A DNA stretch of 64,000 nt from an uncultured Parvibaculum sp. (GTDB lineage: Bacteria; Pseudomonadota; Alphaproteobacteria; Parvibaculales; Parvibaculaceae). Shown here in pieces: positions 2,928-25,231 of this stretch. Within the stretch, counting starts at the first letter, position 1. Each line of letters opens with the position of its first letter. The stretch covers positions 685 through 64,684 of the forward strand of contig CAZFHW010000001.1 of assembly GCA_964518885.1 (NCBI GenBank). Direction: 5' to 3'. The translations under genes and the position numbers were made by a program. A model generated the notes under the pieces. It searched no databases and was not told the DNA's origin. It was given only the letters and a program-made list of their open reading frames with translations.

Positions 2928-3986
2928 TTAGGCCGGGCGGAAACAACCAACCACTTCCGCCATCCAGTCTTTGACATTTTGGCCAAGCTCAGCCGACGTT
3001 TTGCCGTGGCGCACCAGCACCAGGTCCAGGTCTGGCACCACAATGGTGAACTGACCCTCGAAACCATTGGCTGAAAAGCTGCCCGGTCCACCGACGTCAA
3101 GCCACCACTGGGCGCCATATGCGCCCGCTTCCTCAAGCATTTGAGGGGCTTGTGGTGTGGGGGTGCGGGCATAATCGACCCAGCCTTCTGGCAGCAGGCG
3201 CTTGCCCTCCCAGATGCCGTCCCGCAGATAGAGCGTGCCGAATTTTGCAAAGTCGCGCGCCGTCGCATAGCAGAATGAAGAGCCGATAAAGATGCCGGCT
3301 TCATCGAATTTTGGTGCAGCGCTTTTCATGCCAATGAGATCAAGAAGTTCCCGTCGCATGAACGCTTCGAAGTCGGCGCCTGTGGCCCCCAGTGCCAGCG
3401 CAGCACAGCGGGAGATGATGTTGGTGGTGCCGCTTGAGTAGGACCAGAAACTATCCACGTCGTGGGCAAGAGGGAAAGAGGCGGCAAACGCGCCTGTGTC
3501 CTCTTTGCCATCCCCCCAAAGCATTTCGATGACATCGGAAGGGGCGTCCGTGGTGTACTCCTCGCGGAACGCAAGGCCACTCGACATGCGTAGCAACTGA
3601 TCGAGGGTGATTCGATGGCGAGGGTCGCTGGCATCCGACCATTCAGGAACATCTGCGCGCGCCTGAATATCGATTTTCCCGTCGCGCACCAAAATACCGA
3701 CAAGCGCGTGGGTGATGCTTTTGGCTTTTGACCAGGACGGATAGGTGCCAGTGGCGTTGAAGCCTTTGCCATAGCGTTCCGTGACAAGCTTGCCGTGTTG
3801 CACAACTACCAGGGCGTGGCTCTCTCCGAATTTCGGGTCTGGGGTTTCCCCAAAAGCGGCCTCCACCAGAGCCTCCAGCTTGGTCGTGTCCACCTGCGCT
3901 CCCGGTGTCCCCTCGGGCCAATCTTGAGTTGGCCACGGCACGTCTGCGGGCTGTGGCGGCAAGGGGAGCAAAGCGGGTTGCGTCAT
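2928..3986 (-). CDS. Serine hydrolase, beta-lactamase family (NylB-like)
   Basis: SWSKAKS (SxxK), LLRMSSGL, WSYSSG, TARDFAKFG, GFEGQF. Confidence 0.88.
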   Translation of the reverse strand: MTQPALLPLPPQPADVPWPTQDWPEGTPGAQVDTTKLEALVEAAFGETPDPKFGESHALVVVQHGKLVTERYGKGFNATGTYPSWSKAKSITHALVGILVRDGKIDIQARADVPEWSDASDPRHRITLDQLLRMSSGLAFREEYTTDAPSDVIEMLWGDGKEDTGAFAASFPLAHDVDSFWSYSSGTTNIISRCAALALGATGADFEAFMRRELLDLIGMKSAAPKFDEAGIFIGSSFCYATARDFAKFGTLYLRDGIWEGKRLLPEGWVDYARTPTPQAPQMLEEAGAYGAQWWLDVGGPGSFSANGFEGQFTIVVPDLDLVLVRHGKTSAELGQNVKDWMAEVVGCFRPA

Positions 3987-4139: not shown

Positions 4140-6119
4140 ATGGCGCTCGCGCGTATCGGCCTTGAAGGTTCGTGGTTCACAGATGCCGAAGGGCGAAAAG
4201 TTATACTCAGAGGCATCAATCTGGGCGGTGATTGCAAGATGCCTTATCCTGATGGTGGCACAAACCATCCAACAGATTTCTCCGACCATCTTACCGTTTC
4301 TTTCATTGGGCGCCCGTTCCCCCTCGAAGAAGCGGATGAACATTTCTCCCGGCTTGCGGCGTGGGGTTTCAACTGTCTGCGGCTGCTCACAACCTGGGAA
4401 GCAGTGGAGCACGCAGGCCCCGGTGAGTACGACACCGACTATCTCGATTACTACGCCGAACTTTGTCGCAAAGCGGGGGAGTATGGGCTCTACGTATTCG
4501 TTGATTTTCACCAGGATGTTTGGAGCCGTATGACGGGAGGCGATGGCGCCCCCGCATGGATATTTGAAAAGGTCGGCCTCGACTTCACCACCTTTCACGC
4601 ATCGGGCGCGGCCCAGGTGATGCAATATAATTACGATTATGCGCGCGGTGGGCGCCAGGAAGACAATTATCCCACCATGAGCTGGTCGCAGAATTATCGC
4701 CTGCCAGCCAACGGCATCATGTGGACCCTGTTTTTTGCAGGGCGAGACTTTGCGCCAGGTCTGATGATCGATGGCCAAAATGTGCAGGACTATTTGCAGT
4801 CTCATTATCGAGGCTGCCTGGTGGAAATTGCCAAGCGCATTAAGGATCTGCCCAACGTCATTGGTTTTGACACGCTGAACGAGCCGGGAACCGGTTTTAT
4901 CGGGCAATCTCTTTCCTATCAACACGTGGCGCCAAGTGACCAAAACACCCGCATCGCGGTCCCGGGTCCCGCTTGGTCGGCGCTCGACGGGCTGGCTGTT
5001 GCCCGTGGGGTGAGCCGGTCTGTTCCGCAACTCGCTTTTTCAGTCGAGGAAATGAAGTCGGTGGTGACAGAGGACCGCCAAGTGAACGAGGTTGGCGTTG
5101 ACTGTTGGTTGCCCGGCCGCGTTGACCCGTTTGAAGAGGCTGGCGCCTACCGTCGAACCAATGAAGGGGTGGAGCCGCTGCGGGAAGACTTTTTCCAAAA
5201 GGTGAACGGCAAGACCGTCGATCTGGAAGAAGACTACATGGCGCCGTTTTTCAACAAGGTCGCGGAGGCTGTGCGCGCCGTGCGGGAGGACTGGTTGATT
5301 TTCGCTGAGCTTGATCCTTTCACCGGCCTGCTTGGGGGCGTTTTTCCCGAAGCAAGCCCACGTCGCTCGGTGAACGCATCTCACTGGTACGACATCGCCA
5401 CCTTGTCGACGAAAACCTTTATGTACCCAACCGCGATAAATCCGTTTTCGGGAAAAACGTTGGAAGGGCGAGAGGAAATTGAAGCCCATTACCGCCGGCA
5501 ATTGTCGCGCATTCGTGATGCGGGACGGACGTTGAACGAAGGCACCGGCGCGCCAACCCTGATCGGTGAGTGCGGCATTCCTTTCGACCTTGATGGCGCC
5601 AAAGCCTATGACGCCTGGGCGAAGGGTGAGCGGGGAGAGGAGCCTTGGTCGTCCCACGTCATGGCGCTCGAGTTCCTCTACAACGCTCTGGATGCGTTGC
5701 AGCTCAGTTCGACTTTGTGGAATTATACAGCCTCCAATTCCAACGATCTCGCCATCGGAGATGGATGGAACCAGGAGGATCTGTCGATTTTCAGTCGCGA
5801 CCAGCAGGATGATCCGAGCGATATCAATTCTGGTGGCCGGGCCTTGAAAGGTTTCGTGCGGCCCTATTTGCAGACCTGCGAGGGCACACCCCTGGAGACC
5901 AGTTTTACACTTGCGACGGGCGAATTTTTGGCCCGGTACCAACCAACAGCGACGGGCAAGGCAACACTCTTTGTGCCGGTATTGCAGTATCCGAACGGAT
6001 ATAATCTTTCGGTTAAAGGAGGCACGGCGACGTACGGCATGGAGACGCAGAAGGTTGATATCGTTGCTGAGGGCGCAGAGGAAGTGATGATCACGATCAC
6101 GCCGTTTGCTGAAGCGTAA
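4140..6119 (+). CDS. Glycoside hydrolase family 5, endoglycoceramidase/steryl-beta-glucosidase-like
   Basis: LRGINLGG, RLLTTWEAVEHAGPGEYD, DFHQDVWSR, acid/base TLNEP, nucleophile IGECGIP, C-terminal RPY beta-sandwich; no signal peptide visible. Confidence 0.85.
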   Translation: MALARIGLEGSWFTDAEGRKVILRGINLGGDCKMPYPDGGTNHPTDFSDHLTVSFIGRPFPLEEADEHFSRLAAWGFNCLRLLTTWEAVEHAGPGEYDTDYLDYYAELCRKAGEYGLYVFVDFHQDVWSRMTGGDGAPAWIFEKVGLDFTTFHASGAAQVMQYNYDYARGGRQEDNYPTMSWSQNYRLPANGIMWTLFFAGRDFAPGLMIDGQNVQDYLQSHYRGCLVEIAKRIKDLPNVIGFDTLNEPGTGFIGQSLSYQHVAPSDQNTRIAVPGPAWSALDGLAVARGVSRSVPQLAFSVEEMKSVVTEDRQVNEVGVDCWLPGRVDPFEEAGAYRRTNEGVEPLREDFFQKVNGKTVDLEEDYMAPFFNKVAEAVRAVREDWLIFAELDPFTGLLGGVFPEASPRRSVNASHWYDIATLSTKTFMYPTAINPFSGKTLEGREEIEAHYRRQLSRIRDAGRTLNEGTGAPTLIGECGIPFDLDGAKAYDAWAKGERGEEPWSSHVMALEFLYNALDALQLSSTLWNYTASNSNDLAIGDGWNQEDLSIFSRDQQDDPSDINSGGRALKGFVRPYLQTCEGTPLETSFTLATGEFLARYQPTATGKATLFVPVLQYPNGYNLSVKGGTATYGMETQKVDIVAEGAEEVMITITPFAEA

Positions 6120-14979: not shown

Positions 14980-16230
14980 TCAGGCGGGTTTCTCTGCCTG
15001 GCCGGTACCGGCTTCAATTTTCCACAAGTTGGTAAAAAAGAAGACCATAAGCCACAGCACCACCATGCAGGACGAAGGCACGAGCACGGCGTTAAGTGGC
15101 CCGAAGGCCTGGATGACAAAGCCCGCCATAAAGGCGCCGATCGGTCCGCCGCCCATCATGCCCAGCTGAAACACAGAAAGCACACGGGCGCGGTGCGTAT
15201 CCGTCGCCGCGATCTGCACAATGGCGCGGGACTGGCTCATCGAAATGCCCGACGAGAGACCCCAGAAGAGCGCCAACACATACACCGCCCAAAGCGGGGG
15301 ATGAAAGTGCACAAACACCATCATGATAGAGCCGGTGCACATGGCCAGCATGATGGCGCGCCCTTGTCGCTTAATGGGACGGAGACGGCTCAGCACCATG
15401 GACGAGATGCCGATCCCGCCGAAGAAACAGATATTGATAAAGGCAATCTCGAACGATCCGCCCCCATAGACATCTCGCATCAGGATGGGAAACAGCACCA
15501 TGAACACGCCGATATAAAGGATGCCTGCAAAAAACATCATCAAAATGACGGATCGAAGGTCGGCGTTTCGCCAGACAATCTCAACGCCTTCTCGTATTTG
15601 CGAGAGTTGAGAAGGGCGCTTCTTGCCAGGCTCATGGAGAACAGATGGCGGGGCCTTCGGCAACTTCATCGTGGTTGCAGCCGCAACGATCAGCGATAGG
15701 GATTGCGCCAGCATCAGCGGTACTGCACCTATAATCGTTGCCAATCCACCGATCAGCAGGCCGACGACCTGTGACAAAAACTGCGCGCCCGTTGCAAGGG
15801 TGACAGCTTGTTGAATGCGCCCGCCAAGGCTGGTCATGGCCACCCGGTTTAGAAGGGAGTCGCGGGCCGGCATTGTGTAGGCGCCCAGGGCGGACAGGAC
15901 GATGGCGTAAATAATCAACGTCTCATAGTCCACATACCCGGCGGCATAGAGGCCCGCGAGTACAAAAGGCGCCACGGCGGCTAAAAGTTGCAGCCGCATA
16001 AGATATCGTCGCAATTCTCTCCGGTCAGCTGTCGCCCCGCCGAACAATCCGAGCACCAACATGGGCAACATCGCAAACATCTGCGCTATGCCCGCGCGCT
16101 CTGCGCTTTGTTGCAGGACAAAGACGATCAGCCAGGGGAAGAGCACAGACTGAATGCCACCAGAAAAGAAGTAGGCGGAGATCCCCCCCATATACCACCG
16201 CAGGTCAGATCGATTGTCAGTGGTTGGCAC
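14980..16230 (-). CDS. MFS transporter (EntS/DHA3-like), paralogue 1
   Basis: About 12 TM segments; GGATADR motif A, PARDSLL, RARVLSVFQ. Confidence 0.85.
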   Translation of the reverse strand: MPTTDNRSDLRWYMGGISAYFFSGGIQSVLFPWLIVFVLQQSAERAGIAQMFAMLPMLVLGLFGGATADRRELRRYLMRLQLLAAVAPFVLAGLYAAGYVDYETLIIYAIVLSALGAYTMPARDSLLNRVAMTSLGGRIQQAVTLATGAQFLSQVVGLLIGGLATIIGAVPLMLAQSLSLIVAAATTMKLPKAPPSVLHEPGKKRPSQLSQIREGVEIVWRNADLRSVILMMFFAGILYIGVFMVLFPILMRDVYGGGSFEIAFINICFFGGIGISSMVLSRLRPIKRQGRAIMLAMCTGSIMMVFVHFHPPLWAVYVLALFWGLSSGISMSQSRAIVQIAATDTHRARVLSVFQLGMMGGGPIGAFMAGFVIQAFGPLNAVLVPSSCMVVLWLMVFFFTNLWKIEAGTGQAEKPA

Positions 16231-16327
16231 GGTGTATCCCCGAGGGTGTGAGGTTCATTTCAGATGGGTTTGATGGCGACAGGCCTATGTGGTCTGCCTC
16301 GCGAAGGCAAGAGGCATACTGGAAATG

Positions 16328-17527
16328 TCAGTCGGACGCTGCGTCGTGGGCCAAGGAGCGGATGCTCCAGATCGGGGTCAGCAGGCACGCGAGAGCAAGC
16401 ATGATCAGCATGCCGACCGAGGGCACCACTACCGCAATTCGCGGCCCCCACCACTCAATGTACAGGCCACACAGGAAGGCGCCAAGGGGCGCGCCCCCAA
16501 GGACACCCATCTGAAAGACCGAGAGAATACGTCCCCGGTGGCTTGCTGGCGCCGATTCCTGAATGATCGTGCGGTTCATTGTCATGGCGACCCCGCCGCC
16601 ACATCCCCACAGAAATGCAACAGCCATAAAGGCCGGGAAGGTCGGAGCAATCGCAAACGATGCCATCACAAAGGCACCGGCGCCAAGAGCCAGGATGAGG
16701 GCACGACCTTGTCGTACAATCCCACCACGGCGCCCGATCAGAATGACCGTGACGATGATGCCGCTCATCATCGCGACATTGCTCATGGCCAGTTCACTTG
16801 AACCGCCAAGGAAAACGTCGCGCACAAGTATCGGCATGACAACCTGCGAGGTACCAAAAAATAGAATGCCCACACCAAAGACGATCACTGTGGGTGCCAA
16901 AAGGCGTGGCGTGCGGGCAACTTCGCGGAGCCCGTCTGCAATCACGGCAAGTGACGGCGCCTTGCTTCCCTCTGGCCGGTGGGTGGGAAGTTTGAATGCC
17001 AAAGCTGCCCCCATCCACAACAGGGCGGTTTGGGAAAGAAAGATCAGGGCAACCCCGATTACGCCTTCCAGGCTCGCCAGGCCGAAGCCGATAATTTGGG
17101 AACCGAATTGGAACGCGGTCGCGGCCATCACCGCTTTTTGAATTTTGCCACTGGCAATATGATTAAGTAGCGCGTCGCGCGCGGGAATAATAAACGCCCC
17201 CGCAATCCCCATCGCCACCGCATAGATCAGCAACACCGGATAGGTGAGGGCACCCATGCTGATGACGACAAACAGCGCCAGCGGGGGAACGCCTGCAAGA
17301 AAATGCACAAGGATCAAAATACGGCGGCTGTCCAGATGGTCCGCCGTGGCACCTCCCACAAGAATCAACAAAAAGGTAGGCAGGAAGAGCGCCATCATCG
17401 CAATCCCGAGTTCGGTCGGTCCCTCACCCAGTTGCATGGTGATGAGAAAAGGAAACATCACCGTCTGAATGCCTATGGCACTAAACCAGCTGGTCAGACC
17501 ACCAAGATAGAACGTCATAGGCCGCAT
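16328..17527 (-). CDS. MFS transporter, paralogue 2
   Basis: GGATADH, PARDALL, RGRILSVFQMGVLGGAPLG; ATG 17527 preferred. Confidence 0.85.
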   Translation of the reverse strand: MRPMTFYLGGLTSWFSAIGIQTVMFPFLITMQLGEGPTELGIAMMALFLPTFLLILVGGATADHLDSRRILILVHFLAGVPPLALFVVISMGALTYPVLLIYAVAMGIAGAFIIPARDALLNHIASGKIQKAVMAATAFQFGSQIIGFGLASLEGVIGVALIFLSQTALLWMGAALAFKLPTHRPEGSKAPSLAVIADGLREVARTPRLLAPTVIVFGVGILFFGTSQVVMPILVRDVFLGGSSELAMSNVAMMSGIIVTVILIGRRGGIVRQGRALILALGAGAFVMASFAIAPTFPAFMAVAFLWGCGGGVAMTMNRTIIQESAPASHRGRILSVFQMGVLGGAPLGAFLCGLYIEWWGPRIAVVVPSVGMLIMLALACLLTPIWSIRSLAHDAASD

Positions 17528-17553
17528 GGTATTGATCCTTAAATCCGGGGAGT

Positions 17554-18834
17554 TCAGACAGGGGGGTGAGCGCGCAGCACCCAAAGGTGTGACTTCACCA
17601 TAAGCCATGCAAGCACAAGTGTCATGCCGAGTGCCGGAAGCCACATGGCGTTATGGGTTCCAAAATAGCCCGCCATGAAACCCATGATGAGAGCACCAAG
17701 AGGGGCGCCACCGGCAAAACCCATTTGAAAGATCGCCAGAGCACGGGCGCGAAACGCTTCGTCTGTTTCTTCTTGAACGATTGTACGACTGAGAGTCATG
17801 ACGCAACCGGCCCCCAGGCCCCAGACAAGGCAGAGCACGCAAAAGAGCCAGTAGGGCAATTCAAAGGTCAGCCCGACGACGACAAGCGCGCCGCCGAAGA
17901 GGGAGAGGATCATCGCCCGCCCGCGCCGCGTCACATGGCCAAAACGCAGAAGAAAAACCGTGGCAACAATCATGCCGCCGAAGAAAGCGATGTTCGCAAT
18001 GCCGATCTCCACCACACCCCCATGATAGTAGTCGCGCACCAGCAGCGGCAGGGCCACGAGAAACGATCCGACGAAGAAAACACCAATGGCGAACATGGCG
18101 ATGATGACGGGTAGCAATAGGTCGGATCGGCGAACATAGCGGAGGCCATCCCGCATTGCCTGCGCGCGCGACGGATGAACAGTGTTCGGGTCCAGCTTTT
18201 TGCGGGGTAACCGGCGGGCGGTGAGCCCTCCTGCAAGGATCACAAGCGACTGTCCGGCGAAGAGAAGAGGGGCGCCGATCGCCGCAGCCGAAAGGGCAAT
18301 GACCATGCCCAACAGCTGCGCAATTTGCTGCACGGCCATGGCCAGTGTGACCGTCTGTTGGATGTTGCCGCGCGCAACCCGGTTCAAGCTTGCATCGCGC
18401 GCGGGCACCGCAAATGCCGTCGCGGTTCCCATGAGCAGGCCGTAAAAAATCAGAACTTCAAAACTGAGAAGATCCGCGTTAAGAGCCGTTGCCAACGCGA
18501 GCGGTGGTAAAGCCGCAAACAGATGAACGCGAAAGAGGATGGTGCGCGGGTCGCCGCGATCCGCCGTCGCTCCCCCTAGCAGCATGAAAAGAAGTGCCGG
18601 CGCAGAAAGGCTCATTTGCGCGATACCGATCCGGGCAGGTGTCTCATCCAGAACCATAGCCACGAGATAGGGAAACATGACAAATTGCAGGCCAAGGCTG
18701 GCATACCACGTCCCTTGGCCGGTCAAGTACCAGGCGAGGGGCCCAGAACCGCTTTGTGAGTCAGAGCCGCCTTCGCTTTGCTGATCTGCTGCCAATCTAC
18801 CACCCCCGATTTTGGTCTCCGCAAAAAGACCCAC
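17554..18834 (-). CDS. MFS transporter, paralogue 3
   Basis: GGATADR, PARDASL, RARALAIFQMGFAGGAPLG; start uncertain. Confidence 0.85.
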   Translation of the reverse strand: MGLFAETKIGGGRLAADQQSEGGSDSQSGSGPLAWYLTGQGTWYASLGLQFVMFPYLVAMVLDETPARIGIAQMSLSAPALLFMLLGGATADRGDPRTILFRVHLFAALPPLALATALNADLLSFEVLIFYGLLMGTATAFAVPARDASLNRVARGNIQQTVTLAMAVQQIAQLLGMVIALSAAAIGAPLLFAGQSLVILAGGLTARRLPRKKLDPNTVHPSRAQAMRDGLRYVRRSDLLLPVIIAMFAIGVFFVGSFLVALPLLVRDYYHGGVVEIGIANIAFFGGMIVATVFLLRFGHVTRRGRAMILSLFGGALVVVGLTFELPYWLFCVLCLVWGLGAGCVMTLSRTIVQEETDEAFRARALAIFQMGFAGGAPLGALIMGFMAGYFGTHNAMWLPALGMTLVLAWLMVKSHLWVLRAHPPV

Positions 18835-18920: not shown

Positions 18921-19586
18921 CTACCGCCCTGCCTTTTTCATATCGGCGTAGCGATGCGTGGCTCCATTTCCCTCGGTTCCCAGCGCAACCAGCATGGCTT
19001 TGGCAACATCTGTCGCCGCGATCCCGCGATATTTCTGCAGCGGCCCCTGTAGTCCAAGGTTGAGAAAAGGGGTGACCGCGATGGCCAGTTGCTCCGCCGG
19101 TCGGGCTTCTCTCCGCACGCCCAGCAAGACACCGGGCTGAAAGATATGCAGTGCGGGGAAACCCATCGCGCGGATCGCATCTTCGGTCTCTCCTTTGACC
19201 CGCGAATAGAAAATCGATGAGCCAGCACTTGCGCCGACCGCCGAGACGAGTGCGAACCGCTTGGCGCCCGCCGCCAACGCGGCGCGGGCAAAAGCTGTCT
19301 CATAATCAAAATCGACTTTGCGGAAGGCCGCCTGGCTACCCGCCTTCTTGATCGTCGTGCCGAGCGCGCAATAGGCTTCGTCCGCCTTGATGTCTGCCGC
19401 GCGAATACCGTCTTCCAGTGTATCAAAATCAACCACAAGATTGTTCAGCTTGTCGTGTGTTCGCTCCAGTGGTTGTCTGGTCACCGCAACAATCCGGGTG
19501 TGGCGTGGAGAAGCAAGCAGGTACTCAAGCAAGTGTCCGCCGACAAGGCCGGTGGCACCGGCGAGAAGGGCTGTTGTTGTGGTCAT
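18921..19586 (-). CDS. NAD(P)-binding oxidoreductase (TIP30/YraR-like atypical SDR)
   Basis: GATGLVG, CALGTTIKKAGSQAAFRKVD, FYSRVKGE; ATG overlaps the upstream TGA. Confidence 0.88.
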   Translation of the reverse strand: MTTTTALLAGATGLVGGHLLEYLLASPRHTRIVAVTRQPLERTHDKLNNLVVDFDTLEDGIRAADIKADEAYCALGTTIKKAGSQAAFRKVDFDYETAFARAALAAGAKRFALVSAVGASAGSSIFYSRVKGETEDAIRAMGFPALHIFQPGVLLGVRREARPAEQLAIAVTPFLNLGLQGPLQKYRGIAATDVAKAMLVALGTEGNGATHRYADMKKAGR

Positions 19587-20788
19587 GGGGGTGTGGGTCC
19601 TGTGTAGCGCGCACGAGGGCGGATCAGGCCCGGACGCATTTGTTGTTCGATCGCATGAGCGATGAGACCGGCTGTGCGACCAAGCGCAAAGAGCGATAGG
19701 GCAGCGCCTCGCGGCAGGTCAAAGGTTTCACCAAGCGCTGCCAATGCCAAGTCCACATTGGGTTTGATGCCAGCAGCACTTTTCATGGTTTCAATAACGG
19801 TGGAGGCACGCGCAAAGGCATCACTGTCGCCTCGCTGCTCTGCCATAACGCGCATCATCATCTTGGCACGGGGGTCTCCATTGGGATAAAGCCAGTGGGA
19901 AAACCCGGGCATTGGTTCCTGATCGCGCAACCTTTGGCGCACACCCTCCGCAGGGTTGTCCGTTGCAGACAGATCCCGCAGCAGATTTTCTGTGCGCCTT
20001 GAAATGCCCCCATGTCGTGATCCCTGAAGGGCTGCAAGGCCCGCCATAACCGCACCATAGAGGGTCGATCCGGCGGCAGCCGTACACCGGGCGGTAAACG
20101 CGGATGCATTGAGTTCGTGATCGGCGCAAAGCACCAGAGCGGTGCGAATAGCCTCGCCCGTAATTTCATCTTTACCCCAGGCGTCCCGCAACACGTGGTG
20201 CACCGGCCTGGCCGAGGGCTCGCATCCGGCGATCGTGGCCGCAACCAGCCGCAGAATACGCACCCCGGTGGCGGCAAGTCCTTCAGACGTTGTGTTGAAA
20301 AGAGTGGTGTCCGCCACAGCAGCAATGGGCAGCGCTGCCAGACAGCGGTCGACCGGCGGCAGGTCGGCGGGCGGGGCAGGGAAGGATGGCGGCAGCACAT
20401 CATCCTGAAACGGGTTTTGAGGAAAATCCCAAAGCAGACACGCGATGCTCTCCAGCGTGCCATGTTCCGCGAGTTGCGTTGCATCAGATCCGCGATAGTA
20501 GAGCTTGCCGTCCGCGATGAGAGTGATGGCGCTCTCCAGCAGCGGTTGACCGAAATTCAGCGCGTACCCGGTCTCATCCAGAGTGGTTTTGGCTTCCCCC
20601 AGTTTAGCAGTTCGGCGATCCTTCAGAGCCCGCACATCCTCCGCCCGGTAGCGCCGTGCACGGGAGCGGGGCACTGGTTCCGACCGGATGAGATCCCGAC
20701 TGACATAGGCATAGAGCGTGGGCAGGCTGACAGTCAGTTCCGCAGCGGCTTCCTTGGCAGAAAGGTACAAGGTGGCGTCATCTGTCAA
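19583..20788 (-). CDS. HTH (excisionase/MerR-like)-citrate synthase family fusion protein
   Basis: N-terminal LSAKEAAAELTVSLPTLYAYVSR HTH; ADHELNASAFTAR, HGG, GFSH, PNVD citrate synthase motifs; TTG start. Confidence 0.85.
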   Translation of the reverse strand: MTDDATLYLSAKEAAAELTVSLPTLYAYVSRDLIRSEPVPRSRARRYRAEDVRALKDRRTAKLGEAKTTLDETGYALNFGQPLLESAITLIADGKLYYRGSDATQLAEHGTLESIACLLWDFPQNPFQDDVLPPSFPAPPADLPPVDRCLAALPIAAVADTTLFNTTSEGLAATGVRILRLVAATIAGCEPSARPVHHVLRDAWGKDEITGEAIRTALVLCADHELNASAFTARCTAAAGSTLYGAVMAGLAALQGSRHGGISRRTENLLRDLSATDNPAEGVRQRLRDQEPMPGFSHWLYPNGDPRAKMMMRVMAEQRGDSDAFARASTVIETMKSAAGIKPNVDLALAALGETFDLPRGAALSLFALGRTAGLIAHAIEQQMRPGLIRPRARYTGPTPP

Positions 20789-20801
20789 TTTCTGGGTGCC
20801 T

Positions 20802-20835
20802 TCAATTATACATTGATTACCTTAATCAAGATTGA
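20802..20835. promoter_or_regulatory. Cluster of TCAA/TTGA inverted repeats in the divergent promoter
   Basis: TTGATT-N5-AATCAA (20813-20829) perfect; overlapping TCAAT-N5-ATTGA (20802-20816) and TCAA-GA-TTGA (20826-20835). Confidence 0.6.
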
Positions 20836-20907
20836 CGATATAGGCAAGGATTCGCATCTTGTTCCCAGGAAACGCCTGGGCTGATTCCCCCAGCAAAGGA
20901 GTTAAAA

Positions 20908-22032
20908 ATGACGGATGAGAACAAAAAGATGAAGACGACAAAAGTTGCTGCAACGGGTTTGGAAGGCGTTATCGCCGCAGATACGGCTTTGAGCCGGGTG
21001 GATGGGACGGCGGGCCGTCTCATTATCGCCGGGCTCGACCTGCCGGATCTGGTCGCCTCCTCATGTTTCGAAGGCACAGTGGCAGCCCTTTGGCGCACGG
21101 CAGGGCATGTGAGCGACGACCAAGAAGTGGCCGAGGGTTTGGGCCTGGCACGGGTTGACGCATTTATCCATGTTCCCGCCCTCCTGGCAGCCTCAGCCGG
21201 CCTCACTGTGACCGAGGCGCTACGCATTGGTCTGTCTCTGCTGGCAGACGAGCACCCCATTCCGGCCCCTCTTCGGTTAGTGGGCGCGATGCCGGTCTTC
21301 GTTGCGGCATTGGCGCGTCATGAGCAAGGGGCTGATCCATGTGCGCCTGATGCGGCGCGCGGTCATGCGGAAGACTATTTGCGCATGTTGCATGGGAGCG
21401 AGCCCACGCCTGACGCGGTACATGCCATGGACGCCTACTTCACCACCGCCAGTGATCACGGCATGAACGCCTCCACCTTCACCGCCCGTGTGGTGGCCTC
21501 AACTGCCGCGGGGCAGGTGTCGTCTATTCTTGCGGGTCTGTGTGCGCTCAAAGGACCCTTGCACGGAGGTGCACCGGGCCCGGTGCTCGACATGCTGGAT
21601 GAGATCGGGACGCCGGAAAATATTGAACCCTGGTTGCGCAATGCGGTGCAGACCGGCGAACGCCTGATGGGCTTTGGCCACCGCATCTACCGGGTGCGCG
21701 ATCCACGGGCCGATGTGTTGGGCGCAGAAGTAGCACAATTGTCCGGCAATCACCGTCAGCGCATCAGCTTCGCGCTTCAGGTGGAAGAAACCGCCAAGGC
21801 AGTGCTGAAGGAACTCAAACCCCACCGGCCTCTCGATACCAATGTGGAGTTCTACACAGCCCTGCTATTGGAAGCCCTGGATATTCCCCGCAGCGCTTTC
21901 ACACCCACATTCGCCATCGGCCGCGTGGCGGGGTGGACAGCTCACGTTATGGAGCAGGAACAGGCGGGCCGCCTGATCCGTCCCTCAGCAAACTATGTGG
22001 GGATTGTGCCGGACGACCTGGAAGTGGCGTGA
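20908..22032 (+). CDS. Citrate synthase/methylcitrate synthase family protein (CitA-like)
   Basis: GLEGV, DHGMNASTFTAR, GPLHGGA, MGFGHRIYRVRDPRA, NVEFY, GWTAHVMEQ; RBS AAGGAG. Confidence 0.9.
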   Translation: MTDENKKMKTTKVAATGLEGVIAADTALSRVDGTAGRLIIAGLDLPDLVASSCFEGTVAALWRTAGHVSDDQEVAEGLGLARVDAFIHVPALLAASAGLTVTEALRIGLSLLADEHPIPAPLRLVGAMPVFVAALARHEQGADPCAPDAARGHAEDYLRMLHGSEPTPDAVHAMDAYFTTASDHGMNASTFTARVVASTAAGQVSSILAGLCALKGPLHGGAPGPVLDMLDEIGTPENIEPWLRNAVQTGERLMGFGHRIYRVRDPRADVLGAEVAQLSGNHRQRISFALQVEETAKAVLKELKPHRPLDTNVEFYTALLLEALDIPRSAFTPTFAIGRVAGWTAHVMEQEQAGRLIRPSANYVGIVPDDLEVA

Positions 22033-22040
22033 CGCTGTGC

Positions 22041-22511
22041 CTAGCACGGGTTCAGGGAACTGAAAGCGCGCTGGATGAGCCGGATGGCCGGTTCATCCAG
22101 CAGTTCAGGGTGCCATTCGCCAAACCGGATGATCTGGCGTTCGAGCTGTTCAAAACTTGCAGTGCGCGGAACCAAAGCGCACTGGAACCGGTCTGGATCA
22201 TCATTGTCGTGGAGCTTTTGCGTGCCTTCGCTCACCTGCATGGCACGCAGGCTTCCAAAAAAACCGCTCACATATTGCCGACAATAGCGGGCCTTGCCGG
22301 AAAGCCGGTCTTCTGGGTGCGCCAATTGTTGATCAGCAGCAAGTTGGCAAAATGTAAAAAGGTCACGCCCGGTTTCAACTCGCATACGTGCAAGACCTGG
22401 CTCGACCGTGGCACAGAGCAGTAAGACGGCGAGCAGAAATCTGGCTGGTCTGCGGCCGGGTGAAGCAGCATGACTATTCAAACCAGATGTCAGTTGTCGA
22501 AATCGATCCAT
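22041..22511 (-). CDS. Rap1a/Tai family immunity-like exported protein
   Basis: Signal peptide then TGRDLFTFC...YCRQYVSG...C..P...QL...HPELLDEPA..LI..AF...PC, the 4-Cys Rap1a pattern. Confidence 0.7.
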   Translation of the reverse strand: MDRFRQLTSGLNSHAASPGRRPARFLLAVLLLCATVEPGLARMRVETGRDLFTFCQLAADQQLAHPEDRLSGKARYCRQYVSGFFGSLRAMQVSEGTQKLHDNDDPDRFQCALVPRTASFEQLERQIIRFGEWHPELLDEPAIRLIQRAFSSLNPC

Positions 22512-22714
22512 CGCTCCCACAGGCTCTCGGCGCATTCACTGGATGTATATTGGCTGGTGAGTAACCGCATTGGGCGTTCTGCGATGCCACCCAGCGTATC
22601 CCCCGCCATTTCCGACGCCAAGGCGCGGCAGGGATCCAGCGTCCCGTAGTTTCCGTAAAAAAGTCCGCCTGCTGCAACCGCGAGCAAAGCAACCATGCTG
22701 ATAAGCGTGCGCAT
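22490..22714 (-). CDS. Small exported/membrane hypothetical protein
   Basis: 74 aa, N-terminal hydrophobic helix, two Cys (DPC, SEC). Confidence 0.6.
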   Translation of the reverse strand: MRTLISMVALLAVAAGGLFYGNYGTLDPCRALASEMAGDTLGGIAERPMRLLTSQYTSSECAESLWERWIDFDN

Positions 22715-23351: not shown

Positions 23352-24446
23352 ATGATACAGGCCTTGTCACAGTCCGATATACAAGTCGCAAACCAAGCCG
23401 AGCCGGAGGCTGTCTATGAGCTTCTGGCACGACACCTGAGTGACTTGTTGCTTACGGGCATGGGAAGTATTGCGCCGCACGAACTGGCCCTGGCGGAAAC
23501 AGCCTTGGTCGACCTGCTGCCTTTTTTGAGTGAGGAATTGAAGCGCCGGTTGGCAGAACGGCTCGTCCCTCTGGAAATGGCGCCGGATGCCTTGCTGGCG
23601 GCCTTGCTGGCGGAACCCTTAAGCGTGTCGGGACCCTTGGTCTCCGATGGTCTGTGTTTGACCAGTTGTGATCTCGTTCATTTTGCTGAAACAGGGGGGC
23701 TGGAGCACCGTCTTTGCGTCGCACAGAGGCGCGATCTGAGCCGCGTTGTCTGTGATGCGTTGACGGTGAAGGGCGAAATAGAGGTCTTGCGGGCCCTGGT
23801 GGGGAATACCACCGCGTCCCTGTCAGACCGGGCGATAGAAATGATCGCCCGTCGATCTTCAGCTGAACCTGATCTCATCATGATGCTTCTCAACCGCCGC
23901 GAACTCACGCCTTGGTTTGCGCACCTGATGTTCTGGTGGGCAGACGGGGAGGAGCGCAGCGCAATCTTGAAGCGGTTTCCGATCGATCGCCGTGCGGTTG
24001 TTGAGGCGCTGGATGATCTCTTCGATCTGGAGAGCCTTATGGAGACAGAATCTGTGGCGCTTCACAGCACCTATCGGTTGTTGCGCCCGGCGCGCCGTTT
24101 GGAAAATGAGGCGTTGCAGGCCCTCATCGCCGGGGTCGATGTTCGCTCGACACAATCAGCCACGTCGGCCATGGCAGCAGCGGCTGATATTTCACCAAAA
24201 ACAGCATCTTGGGTTATCTCAGACGAGGGCGGGGAGCCATTGGCTGTTCTGGGTAAGGCGCTCGGACTTTCCCGCAGCGATTTTCGCGATGTTGCCTCGC
24301 GTCTGGGTGCGGCCCGGCTATCGGGTGCGTACACGGAAAATGAAATGGAACGGGCTGTCGCTCTTTTCGATTCAGTAACAATGGACAGAGCAGATTCCAT
24401 CCTGCACTTCTGGGACAGGATCGTCTGCGCAGAAACCAGAACCTGA
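23352..24446 (+). CDS. DUF2336 domain protein
   Basis: LAERL...AP..L...L......VSGPL, AQRRDLS..VCDAL...GE..V...L.GN..A, GEPLAVLGKALGLSR. Confidence 0.8.
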   Translation: MIQALSQSDIQVANQAEPEAVYELLARHLSDLLLTGMGSIAPHELALAETALVDLLPFLSEELKRRLAERLVPLEMAPDALLAALLAEPLSVSGPLVSDGLCLTSCDLVHFAETGGLEHRLCVAQRRDLSRVVCDALTVKGEIEVLRALVGNTTASLSDRAIEMIARRSSAEPDLIMMLLNRRELTPWFAHLMFWWADGEERSAILKRFPIDRRAVVEALDDLFDLESLMETESVALHSTYRLLRPARRLENEALQALIAGVDVRSTQSATSAMAAAADISPKTASWVISDEGGEPLAVLGKALGLSRSDFRDVASRLGAARLSGAYTENEMERAVALFDSVTMDRADSILHFWDRIVCAETRT

Positions 24447-24451
24447 AAAAA

Positions 24452-25231
24452 CTAGCTGGCGGCCTTCTCTGATCGAGGTGCGCGGAACGTGCTCAAGGAG
24501 ACCACGCGTTCAAGGTCTTCCCGAGTAGAGCGTGCGGTCTCGAAAATATCCCCTTCAGCCCGGTCAATCAGGTTGAGAATTTCTTCCACACCGGTCAGGA
24601 TGGGGGCCAGCCAATCGTTGGCCTCATCTGGGTTCTGAGCGTTCGCCTGCGCTTCATCGACCATCAATTGGGCATCGGTCGCAAGGGTCGCGGCCGCCTG
24701 GCGGACCGCGCCAGTGTTGAAATCATCAGCCCCAACGATCAGGTTCTCAATATGTCGGATTTGCGCACGGATGCCATTGATACGTGCAGCCTGTTCCCGC
24801 CCGGCCCGCTCGCTGTCGTCCATCATGGGGGCCAGATCATCAAGAGACACGGTCAGGCAGTGGGCAATCGCCGTCATGGTGCGAAAAGTGCCGTCCTTCT
24901 TCCCGGTTTCAATCTCTGAGAGGTAGGCCGGACTGATGCCCGCCGCGCGTGCAAGCTCGACGCCTTTAAAGCCCCGATGCTGACGCCAGACCCGCACGGG
25001 TATTTCGCCATCAGCAATCCGGTGCACCACCTCCGCTGGAATAAGGTCCGTCGAGTCGCCCAGAATGGCATTTGACGATGCTTTCACATCGTCTATTTCC
25101 TCGGCGGCTCGTTTCAGGCGGGCATATTCTGCAACCGGCACCAACGTATAAAGCGGTTCGCCGTCGCTGCTGCATATGACTTGTGGGGCGGATGATGGTT
25201 TTTTGGATAGGCCCGCTGTGGCTTGGGTCAT
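24452..25231 (-). CDS. XRE (HigA-like) HTH protein with long helical C-terminal extension
   Basis: GEPLYTLVPVAEY, GEIPVRVWRQHRG...LARAAGISPAYLSEIETGKKDG; about 125 extra residues after the HTH. Confidence 0.8.
   Translation of the reverse strand: MTQATAGLSKKPSSAPQVICSSDGEPLYTLVPVAEYARLKRAAEEIDDVKASSNAILGDSTDLIPAEVVHRIADGEIPVRVWRQHRGFKGVELARAAGISPAYLSEIETGKKDGTFRTMTAIAHCLTVSLDDLAPMMDDSERAGREQAARINGIRAQIRHIENLIVGADDFNTGAVRQAAATLATDAQLMVDEAQANAQNPDEANDWLAPILTGVEEILNLIDRAEGDIFETARSTREDLERVVSLSTFRAPRSEKAAS

Follow-up and report, generated by a model that had tools for sequence, protein, structure and literature searches.

A citrate synthase fold carrying a MerR-type winged helix-turn-helix: a probable local regulator divergent from a CitA-type citrate synthase gene

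Introduction

One-component regulators derived from enzymes are already known (BirA, PutA, MocR, BzdR). In the 'trigger enzymes' BirA, PutA and NadR, a DNA-binding domain sits on an enzyme fold whose active site is intact, and these proteins autoregulate the genes of their pathway through a nearby operator. In other widespread regulators, usually encoded divergently from the genes that they control, the enzyme fold acts as the ligand sensor: MocR/GabR/PdxR join a winged helix-turn-helix (HTH) to an aminotransferase fold, and BzdR joins an HTH to a shikimate-kinase-like domain that senses benzoyl-coenzyme A (CoA) (PMC3602430). Here we analyse a fusion of an HTH to a citrate synthase, encoded divergently from a stand-alone citrate synthase (the partner) in a 64,000-nucleotide stretch of an uncultured Parvibaculum sp. 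(contig CAZFHW010000001.1; hereafter the window). We conclude that the fusion is probably a local transcription regulator, made of a citrate-synthase-fold sensor and a MerR-superfamily winged HTH. Like BzdR, it would use an enzyme fold as a ligand sensor and, like BirA, PutA and NadR, it is proposed to autoregulate through a nearby operator. However, the latter three have other folds and chemistry and are proven enzymes and repressors, whereas the fusion is known from sequence alone; and in contrast to MocR/GabR/PdxR and BzdR, its HTH is of the MerR/excisionase type, not GntR or XRE, and its sensor is a citrate synthase, a sensor fold that would be new.

Citrate synthase is the entry to the Krebs cycle, and the control of the 'minor' second citrate synthases of bacteria is known in few species. 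In Bacillus subtilis, citA reportedly faces a divergently transcribed dedicated regulator, citR. B. subtilis CitA and Mycobacterium tuberculosis CitA (8GMF) belong to the same minor-synthase subfamily as the partner described here and share with it a Glu in the motif NVEF(Y/W); CitR, however, is LysR-type, whereas the regulator proposed here combines a citrate synthase fold with a MerR-type HTH. Adjacent citrate synthase paralogues are likewise found in another alphaproteobacterium, Caulobacter crescentus (citB/citC, CCNA_03757/03758), where an E. coli gltA mutant is rescued by citB but not by citC (PMC7083601; Berge et al. 2020, eLife). CitC was handled there only as a non-functional paralogue, with HTH, operator and regulation unmentioned (PMC7083601). 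A full-text literature search found no paper describing the fusion family as a regulator; one paper calls Streptomyces coelicolor SCO5831 'citrate synthase-like', without further detail.

An operator-like element accompanies the fusion gene

The fusion gene, the partner and the elements between them are as follows (window coordinates).

19583..20788, minus strand: HTH-citrate-synthase fusion gene (P0001), 401 amino acids, TTG start; proposed regulator, from its open reading frame (ORF) and family matches
20591..20767, minus strand: winged HTH domain, residues 8-66 of the fusion, from conserved columns and a domain model
19586..20545, minus strand: citrate-synthase-fold body, residues 82-401 of the fusion, from profile and fold matches
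20789-20907: spacer of 119 nt between the divergent fusion and partner genes
20813..20835, minus strand: core operator TCAATCTTGATTAAGGTAATCAA (fusion sense strand), 23 nt with three alternating TCAA/TTGA half-sites
20803-20806, plus strand: fourth half-site TTGA, completing a TCAAT-N5-ATTGA repeat
20805..20810, minus strand: TATAAT hexamer that immediately follows the final half-site of the operator, possibly the -10 box of the fusion promoter
20908..22032, plus strand: CitA-type citrate synthase (P0002), 374 amino acids, NF009005; proposed regulated target

The spacer contains a perfect 7+7 palindrome, TTGATTA-CCT-TAATCAA (20813-20829), which is overlapped by the repeats TCAAT-N5-ATTGA (20802-20816) and TCAA-GA-TTGA (20826-20835). 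Overlapping inverted repeats had been noticed here in a first-pass annotation of the same DNA, and they are borne out; the operator is the reverse strand of 20813-20835, so the TTGATT-N5-AATCAA palindrome noted then is its central part. No match to the 23-nt core occurred in 100 shuffles of the window, even when up to two mismatches were allowed, and the 3.15-Mb assembly has a single copy of the exact pattern. A search for further copies that would define a regulon in the source genome returned only matches with one or two mismatches, at chance level.

The family is widespread. In a scan of cluster representatives, at least 150 clusters at 50% identity align over residues 6-400 (1023 matches below 1e-30), and on contigs sampled at one genome per species, at least 598 stretches (species) encode a relative of the fusion. 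We compared the loci of the best 80 of these stretches, and counted the operator over 79 loci. The 80 loci come from about ten phyla overall, covering Alpha-, Beta- and Gammaproteobacteria, Acidobacteriota, Chloroflexota, Actinomycetota (Rubrobacteraceae), Gemmatimonadota, Myxococcota, Latescibacterota, Binatia and Vulcanimicrobiota. The spacers of the loci with a divergent CitA-type gene share the motif (G/A)TCAAT(C/A)TTGAT(T)-N4-6-(A)ATCAAT. In 73 of the 79 loci, the sense strand has the pattern TCAA..TTGA-N6-10-TCAA no more than 200 nt from the fusion start, with a median of 10 nt between operator and start, against 3 background matches in the other 1.58 Mb of the loci. The operator that these 73 loci have a short way upstream of the fusion can be written TCAAT-n-TTGAT-N5-8-ATCAA. 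Four of the six exceptions (L009, L012, L013, L056) carry a copy with one mismatch; in the remaining two (L032, L033) the operator lies elsewhere in the locus. The last half-site is spaced by N5 in proteobacteria and by N4 in Chloroflexota and Acidobacteriota, one base apart. In many loci the entire spacer is only 40-60 bp, with the ATG of the fusion abutting the last half-site.

A CitA-type gene is divergent and nearby in 56 of the 80 loci, mostly 40-100 bp from the fusion. The first-pass annotation had proposed that the fusion is an enzyme-fold one-component regulator acting on the spacer, and that motif conservation in related loci would be a check; both the conservation of the operator and the recurrence of the divergent synthase speak for this proposal. 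The operator is also kept when the divergent gene is a different one: a family III CoA-transferase gene in seven loci (Pandoraea, Bordetella, Burkholderia, Achromobacter, Paraburkholderia, Xylophilus and a Terriglobales metagenome-assembled genome (MAG)), a phosphoenolpyruvate (PEP)-mutase/isocitrate-lyase-family gene followed by a PrpC-like synthase gene in Stenotrophomonas and, by the same layout, Luteimonas, an HMGL-like gene in Ktedonobacter, or an MFS_3 gene in Pseudoduganella. Judged from these loci, the operator tracks the fusion and not citA.

On the protein side, conservation in the fusion peaks in the HTH. The recognition-helix motif TLYAYVSR(G) is nearly invariant, and L18, Y26, Y28, V29, S30, R31 and S36 are invariant in 37 diverse members. 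As the strongest conserved segment is the HTH, a fixed DNA target is to be expected, and a near-invariant recognition helix that goes with a near-invariant, genome-unique site linked to its gene is what marks out a local regulator with its operator. The fusion thus appears to have a specific operator linked both to its own gene and to its putative targets. The same evidence bears on another explanation: the fusion would simply be a third isozyme of citrate synthase with an HTH that regulates nothing, and the spacer motif would be the site of a different factor. Its database name, 'citrate synthase (family protein)', and an intact active site would suit such an isozyme, which we nevertheless regard as extremely unlikely: the motif accompanies the fusion regardless of the neighbouring gene, it occurs once in the genome and so is not the site of a global regulator, the HTH is the best conserved segment, and the genome already has a canonical GltA and a CitA-type enzyme.

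Several observations on individual members were made along the way. In L033 (3949-3970, a Promineifilaceae MAG), the operator stands beside the CitA-type gene, 1.1 kb from the fusion, which fits the synthase as a target. Uliginosibacterium (L080) has two operator copies 1.6 kb apart (3316-3338 and 4920-4942), one of them next to the fusion and the other in a different intergenic gap, and some members may, from these two copies, control a second transcription unit. In P0282, P0296, P0300, P0302 and other Caulobacteraceae, start codons are often called too early, so that the operator is translated into artefactual N-termini, e.g. LINLINM; N-termini of this type are a handy flag for both the operator and mis-set start codons. 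P0133 (792 amino acids) was considered as a natural fusion of regulator and partner and rejected, as it consists of two tandem HTH-citrate-synthase units. P0210 (512 amino acids) falls in the fusion clade with a Sel1-repeat N-terminus in place of the HTH.

A MerR-type winged helix on a citrate synthase body

By profiles and models, the fusion is a single polypeptide that combines a DNA-binding domain with a ligand-binding domain of enzyme origin. It matches Pfam Citrate_synt (PF00285) at 1.8e-56 and 192.2 bits (cut-off 27), which places it in the family, while it is under the cut-off of every NCBIfam citrate synthase model (best 155 bits vs 421). Residues 8-59 score 25.5 bits against HTH_17 (cut-off 27) and 17.4 bits against MerR_1 (cut-off 21.6). 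In a tree built with FastTree only and rooted at the midpoint, the synthase domains of the fusions form a single clade (support 100), separate from the CitA-, GltA- and PrpC-type enzymes and with longer branches than the partners. According to this tree, the fusion family has a single origin.

An AlphaFold2 model of the fusion, made from the family alignment, has a mean predicted local distance difference test score (pLDDT) of 92.3. The modelled N-terminus consists of a strand, two helices, a two-strand wing and a helix at 49-66 (18 residues); residues 65-81 form a disordered linker, followed by a complete citrate synthase body. Among solved folds the body matches PrpC and citrate synthases (TM 0.63 to about 0.7, probability 1.00). 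When modelled separately (pLDDT 90), the HTH domain is nearest to SoxR, RacA, BldC, mycobacteriophage Pukovnik Xis, NmlR and CadR (TM 0.63-0.77), with E-values that are weak, as expected with 60 residues; the MerR-family folds SoxR, NmlR, CadR, BmrR and MtaN match at TM 0.65-0.77. Residues 8-66 thus share the winged HTH fold of SoxR, BldC, RacA and phage Xis. Unlike MerR superfamily proteins, the modelled fusion has neither the hallmark long antiparallel coiled-coil dimerisation helix nor a C-terminal effector-binding region. On the model, the fusion has a winged HTH of the MerR superfamily as its head but lacks the MerR coiled coil, and the synthase body would have to provide dimerisation.

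This fold raises the alternative of a MerR-style activator, which would stay on the operator while its ligand-bound form distorts an over-long promoter spacer and switches on the partner. MerR-type promoters have 19-20 bp spacers; read in the partner direction, TTGATT is followed, after 19-20 nt that hold the dyad, by ATATAG/TATAGG. This arrangement and the nearness of the HTH to SoxR, NmlR, CadR, BmrR and MtaN agree with such an activator. The comparison of loci argues otherwise, as no -10-like element stands at a fixed partner-side distance and the information content outside the operator is low, and so do the short helix of 18 residues, followed by a disordered linker rather than a long antiparallel coiled coil, and the three or four half-sites in place of a single dyad. 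We consider this alternative unlikely. On the fusion side, the TATAAT directly after the last half-site, likewise placed in loci L007, L026, L055 and L077, may be the -10 box of the fusion promoter; when -35 and -10 elements were sought by eye, no arrangement was kept across loci.

Ligand binding appears more constrained than catalysis

The fusion retains a complete catalytic triad, H259 (GSRHGG), H298 (GFSHWLY) and D346 (PNVDL), read from its ORF in agreement with the first-pass annotation. The residues that bind oxaloacetate or citrate are H224 (ADHELN), R307 (GDPR), R371 (GRTAG) and R392 (RPRARY). We take H224, H259, H298 and D346 to be the equivalents of H238, H274, H320 and D375 in pig citrate synthase. 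Residues were counted over 263 family members that carry the HTH. All four oxaloacetate/citrate-binding residues are retained in 255 of them, with R307 in 263/263 and the inter-subunit R392 in 262/263. The full His/His/Asp triad is present in 244 (93%), and 19 members (7%) are without a triad residue yet keep the HTH. The partner and other synthases have 88 conserved columns in common; in the fusions, 37 of these are unchanged, 23 differ systematically (for example, MGFGHR.Y..RDPR has become PGFGHPLYP.GDPR) and 28 are relaxed. From these counts, ligand binding looks to be under tighter constraint than catalysis.

The same residues are at issue if the fusion is instead a bifunctional trigger enzyme, that is a working synthase of citrate (or of another acyl-CoA plus oxo-acid product) that also binds DNA, and in which the catalytic cycle or an intermediate (citryl-CoA) would set operator occupancy, as biotinyl-AMP does for BirA. 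The intact triad and oxaloacetate-binding residues, unusual for a pure pseudoenzyme, the retention of the triad in 244/263 members and the complete synthase fold (pLDDT 92) are what this possibility would lead one to see. The 23 changed and 28 relaxed synthase columns, some of them around GFGH, are not, nor is the persistence of the HTH in the 7% of members that lack a triad residue. The single experimental clue, from Caulobacter, points the same way: citC fails to rescue the E. coli gltA mutant, for which poor expression is an alternative cause. Overall, we find a trigger enzyme rather unlikely. The link to Caulobacter comes from the published cloning primers: the citC primer encodes MTDWMD, and the Caulobacteraceae HTH fusions start with MTDWL..., while the MMSDGLEGV encoded by the citB primer corresponds to the N-terminus of a plain synthase of the P0002 kind. 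As a pattern, the citC primer had no exact match in 301 sampled Caulobacterales genomes.

The partner and the meaning of Glu314

The partner scores 399.2 bits against NCBIfam NF009005 ('citrate synthase 2'), above the cut-off of 332, and belongs to this family. Its gene has a ribosome-binding site, AAGGAG, 7 nt upstream. It carries the motifs SDHGMN, GPLHGG, GFGHRIY and TNVEFY, in which Glu314 takes the position of the catalytic Asp of other citrate synthases. The first-pass annotation had noticed NVEFY in place of NVDF, a reading that ORF 20908-22032 confirms, and had seen in it a possible sign of unusual specificity, which did not hold. Among solved chains, the best matches are B. subtilis CitA (2C6X, 1.1e-74) and M. 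tuberculosis CitA (8GMF); 6WGY (M. bovis, 'putative citrate synthase 2') has an equally good score. NVEF(Y/W) is present in both 2C6X and 8GMF as aligned with the partner, and Glu is found in 57 of the 57 CitA-type partner genes that were extracted from related loci; Glu is therefore a hallmark of the subfamily. The four partners with Asp instead belong to PrpC-like or GltA-like subfamilies. Structures of Glu-bearing members were deposited under the name citrate synthase, and the E. coli gltA mutant is rescued by Caulobacter CitB. We thus rejected Glu314 as the mark of a new specificity: it is the norm of the CitA/NF009005 subfamily. Elsewhere in the source genome, contig C27 carries a canonical GltA-type gene.

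Heterodimers of fusion and partner, also raised in the first-pass annotation, would let the regulator sense or titrate the enzyme under its control. Both proteins keep a dimer-type fold and an Arg that reaches the site of the other subunit (R392 in the fusion), and they are co-inherited in 56/80 loci. They are, however, 35% identical, in the C-terminal half only, and a homodimer would fit the palindrome of the site. Heterodimers are not a general feature either, since roughly one locus in four lacks a citrate synthase partner. We judge them improbable.

Proposed mode of action and its significance

The favoured reading remains a local regulator with a citrate-synthase-fold sensor. In this model, the fusion would form a homodimer joined through the citrate synthase body, and its two tethered HTHs would bind the TCAA/TTGA half-sites at 20802-20836, which would fill the core of the divergent promoter region between fusion and partner. 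Because of this position, binding would act on two transcription units: the CitA-type gene (20908-22032) and the operon of the fusion itself, which would comprise the fusion, an SDR-like gene and probably three MFS_3 transporter genes (see below). A small molecule in the preserved active site would shift the body between open and closed forms and so alter operator occupancy; citrate synthases close their small domain upon oxaloacetate binding, which provides a ready switch. Oxaloacetate, citrate or an acyl-CoA are candidate ligands, since in every lineage the neighbouring genes work on acyl-CoA and C4-C6 acids. Ligand-relieved repression is favoured because the site overlaps the probable promoters, with MerR-like activation the less likely mode.

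What the sequences show is the architecture, the kept binding residues, the family-wide and genome-unique operator and the recurrent pairing of the genes; that the protein binds DNA and dimerises, and which ligand and sign of regulation apply, we infer. Several points weigh against this reading. The HTH_17 and MerR_1 scores are slightly under their Pfam cut-offs. A scan of 20600-21100 for sigma-70 promoters and terminators found nothing; with no sigma-70 consensus in the spacer, the overlap of operator and promoter is deduced from spacing alone. The AlphaFold2 model has no confident docking of the HTH onto the body, because the linker 65-81 is disordered, and no allosteric path is visible in it. 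With its triad intact, as in 93% of the family, the fusion may still be mainly an enzyme. Finally, the membership of Caulobacter CitC in the family is tentative, as it comes from six residues translated from a primer.

A flux sensor has also been considered: the open-to-closed catalytic cycle of a still active synthase on oxaloacetate and acyl-CoA would directly set operator occupancy and, in this lineage, switch on a self-contained module for making and exporting citrate, in which the CitA-type enzyme makes citrate and the three MFS_3 proteins export citrate or a derivative, e.g. for metal acquisition. Taken jointly, these steps seem decidedly unlikely.

If the local-regulator reading is true, hundreds of species in about ten phyla would sense a central metabolite with a DNA-binding copy of the enzyme, and the genes under control would include those for citrate synthase, CoA-transferases and lyases. 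A sensor fold would be added to the enzyme-derived regulators, thousands of 'citrate synthase family proteins' would be re-annotated, and the lack of synthase function in Caulobacter CitC would be explained. The operator/regulator pair could then serve in biosensors that respond to oxaloacetate, citrate or acyl-CoA. Because the operator is nearly invariant, the regulator claim can be tested directly.

Neighbouring genes

The genes behind the fusion on the same strand are the following.

18921..19586, minus strand: NAD(P)H-binding SDR-like gene, 221 amino acids; its ATG overlaps the stop codon of the fusion as ATGA
14980..18834, minus strand: three tandem MFS_3 (EntS-like) transporter genes, probably in the fusion operon (longest ORFs 14980-16230, 16328-17644 and 17554-18834)

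Translational coupling of the fusion to the NAD(P)-binding gene had been suggested in the first reading of the sequence. The ATGA overlap is real but lineage-specific: only the closest relatives, L005 and L007, share it. Among the compared loci, SDR-like and MFS_3 genes behind the fusion are likewise common to these two nearest relatives only, and in L005 two MFS_3-type genes follow the SDR-like gene. From strand and spacing only, the MFS_3 genes are probably part of the fusion operon. An orthologous link to the divergent MFS_3 gene of Pseudoduganella was rejected, as its product is 28% identical to the first MFS protein of the window, a tie at the family level only. A triple array of MFS_3 ('secretion effector') genes beside a citrate synthase module hints at the export of citrate or a derivative.

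On the other side, a 164-amino-acid ORF (22041-22535, minus strand) is convergent with the citrate synthase gene and matches the Rap1a type VI secretion immunity family (PF18602, 1.9e-08); none of the scanned ORFs beside it stood out as an effector gene. Between the citrate synthase module and a gene for an XRE-type HTH protein (24452-25231) lies a gene for a DUF2336 protein (23352-24446, plus strand; 1.3e-45), a family of unknown function.

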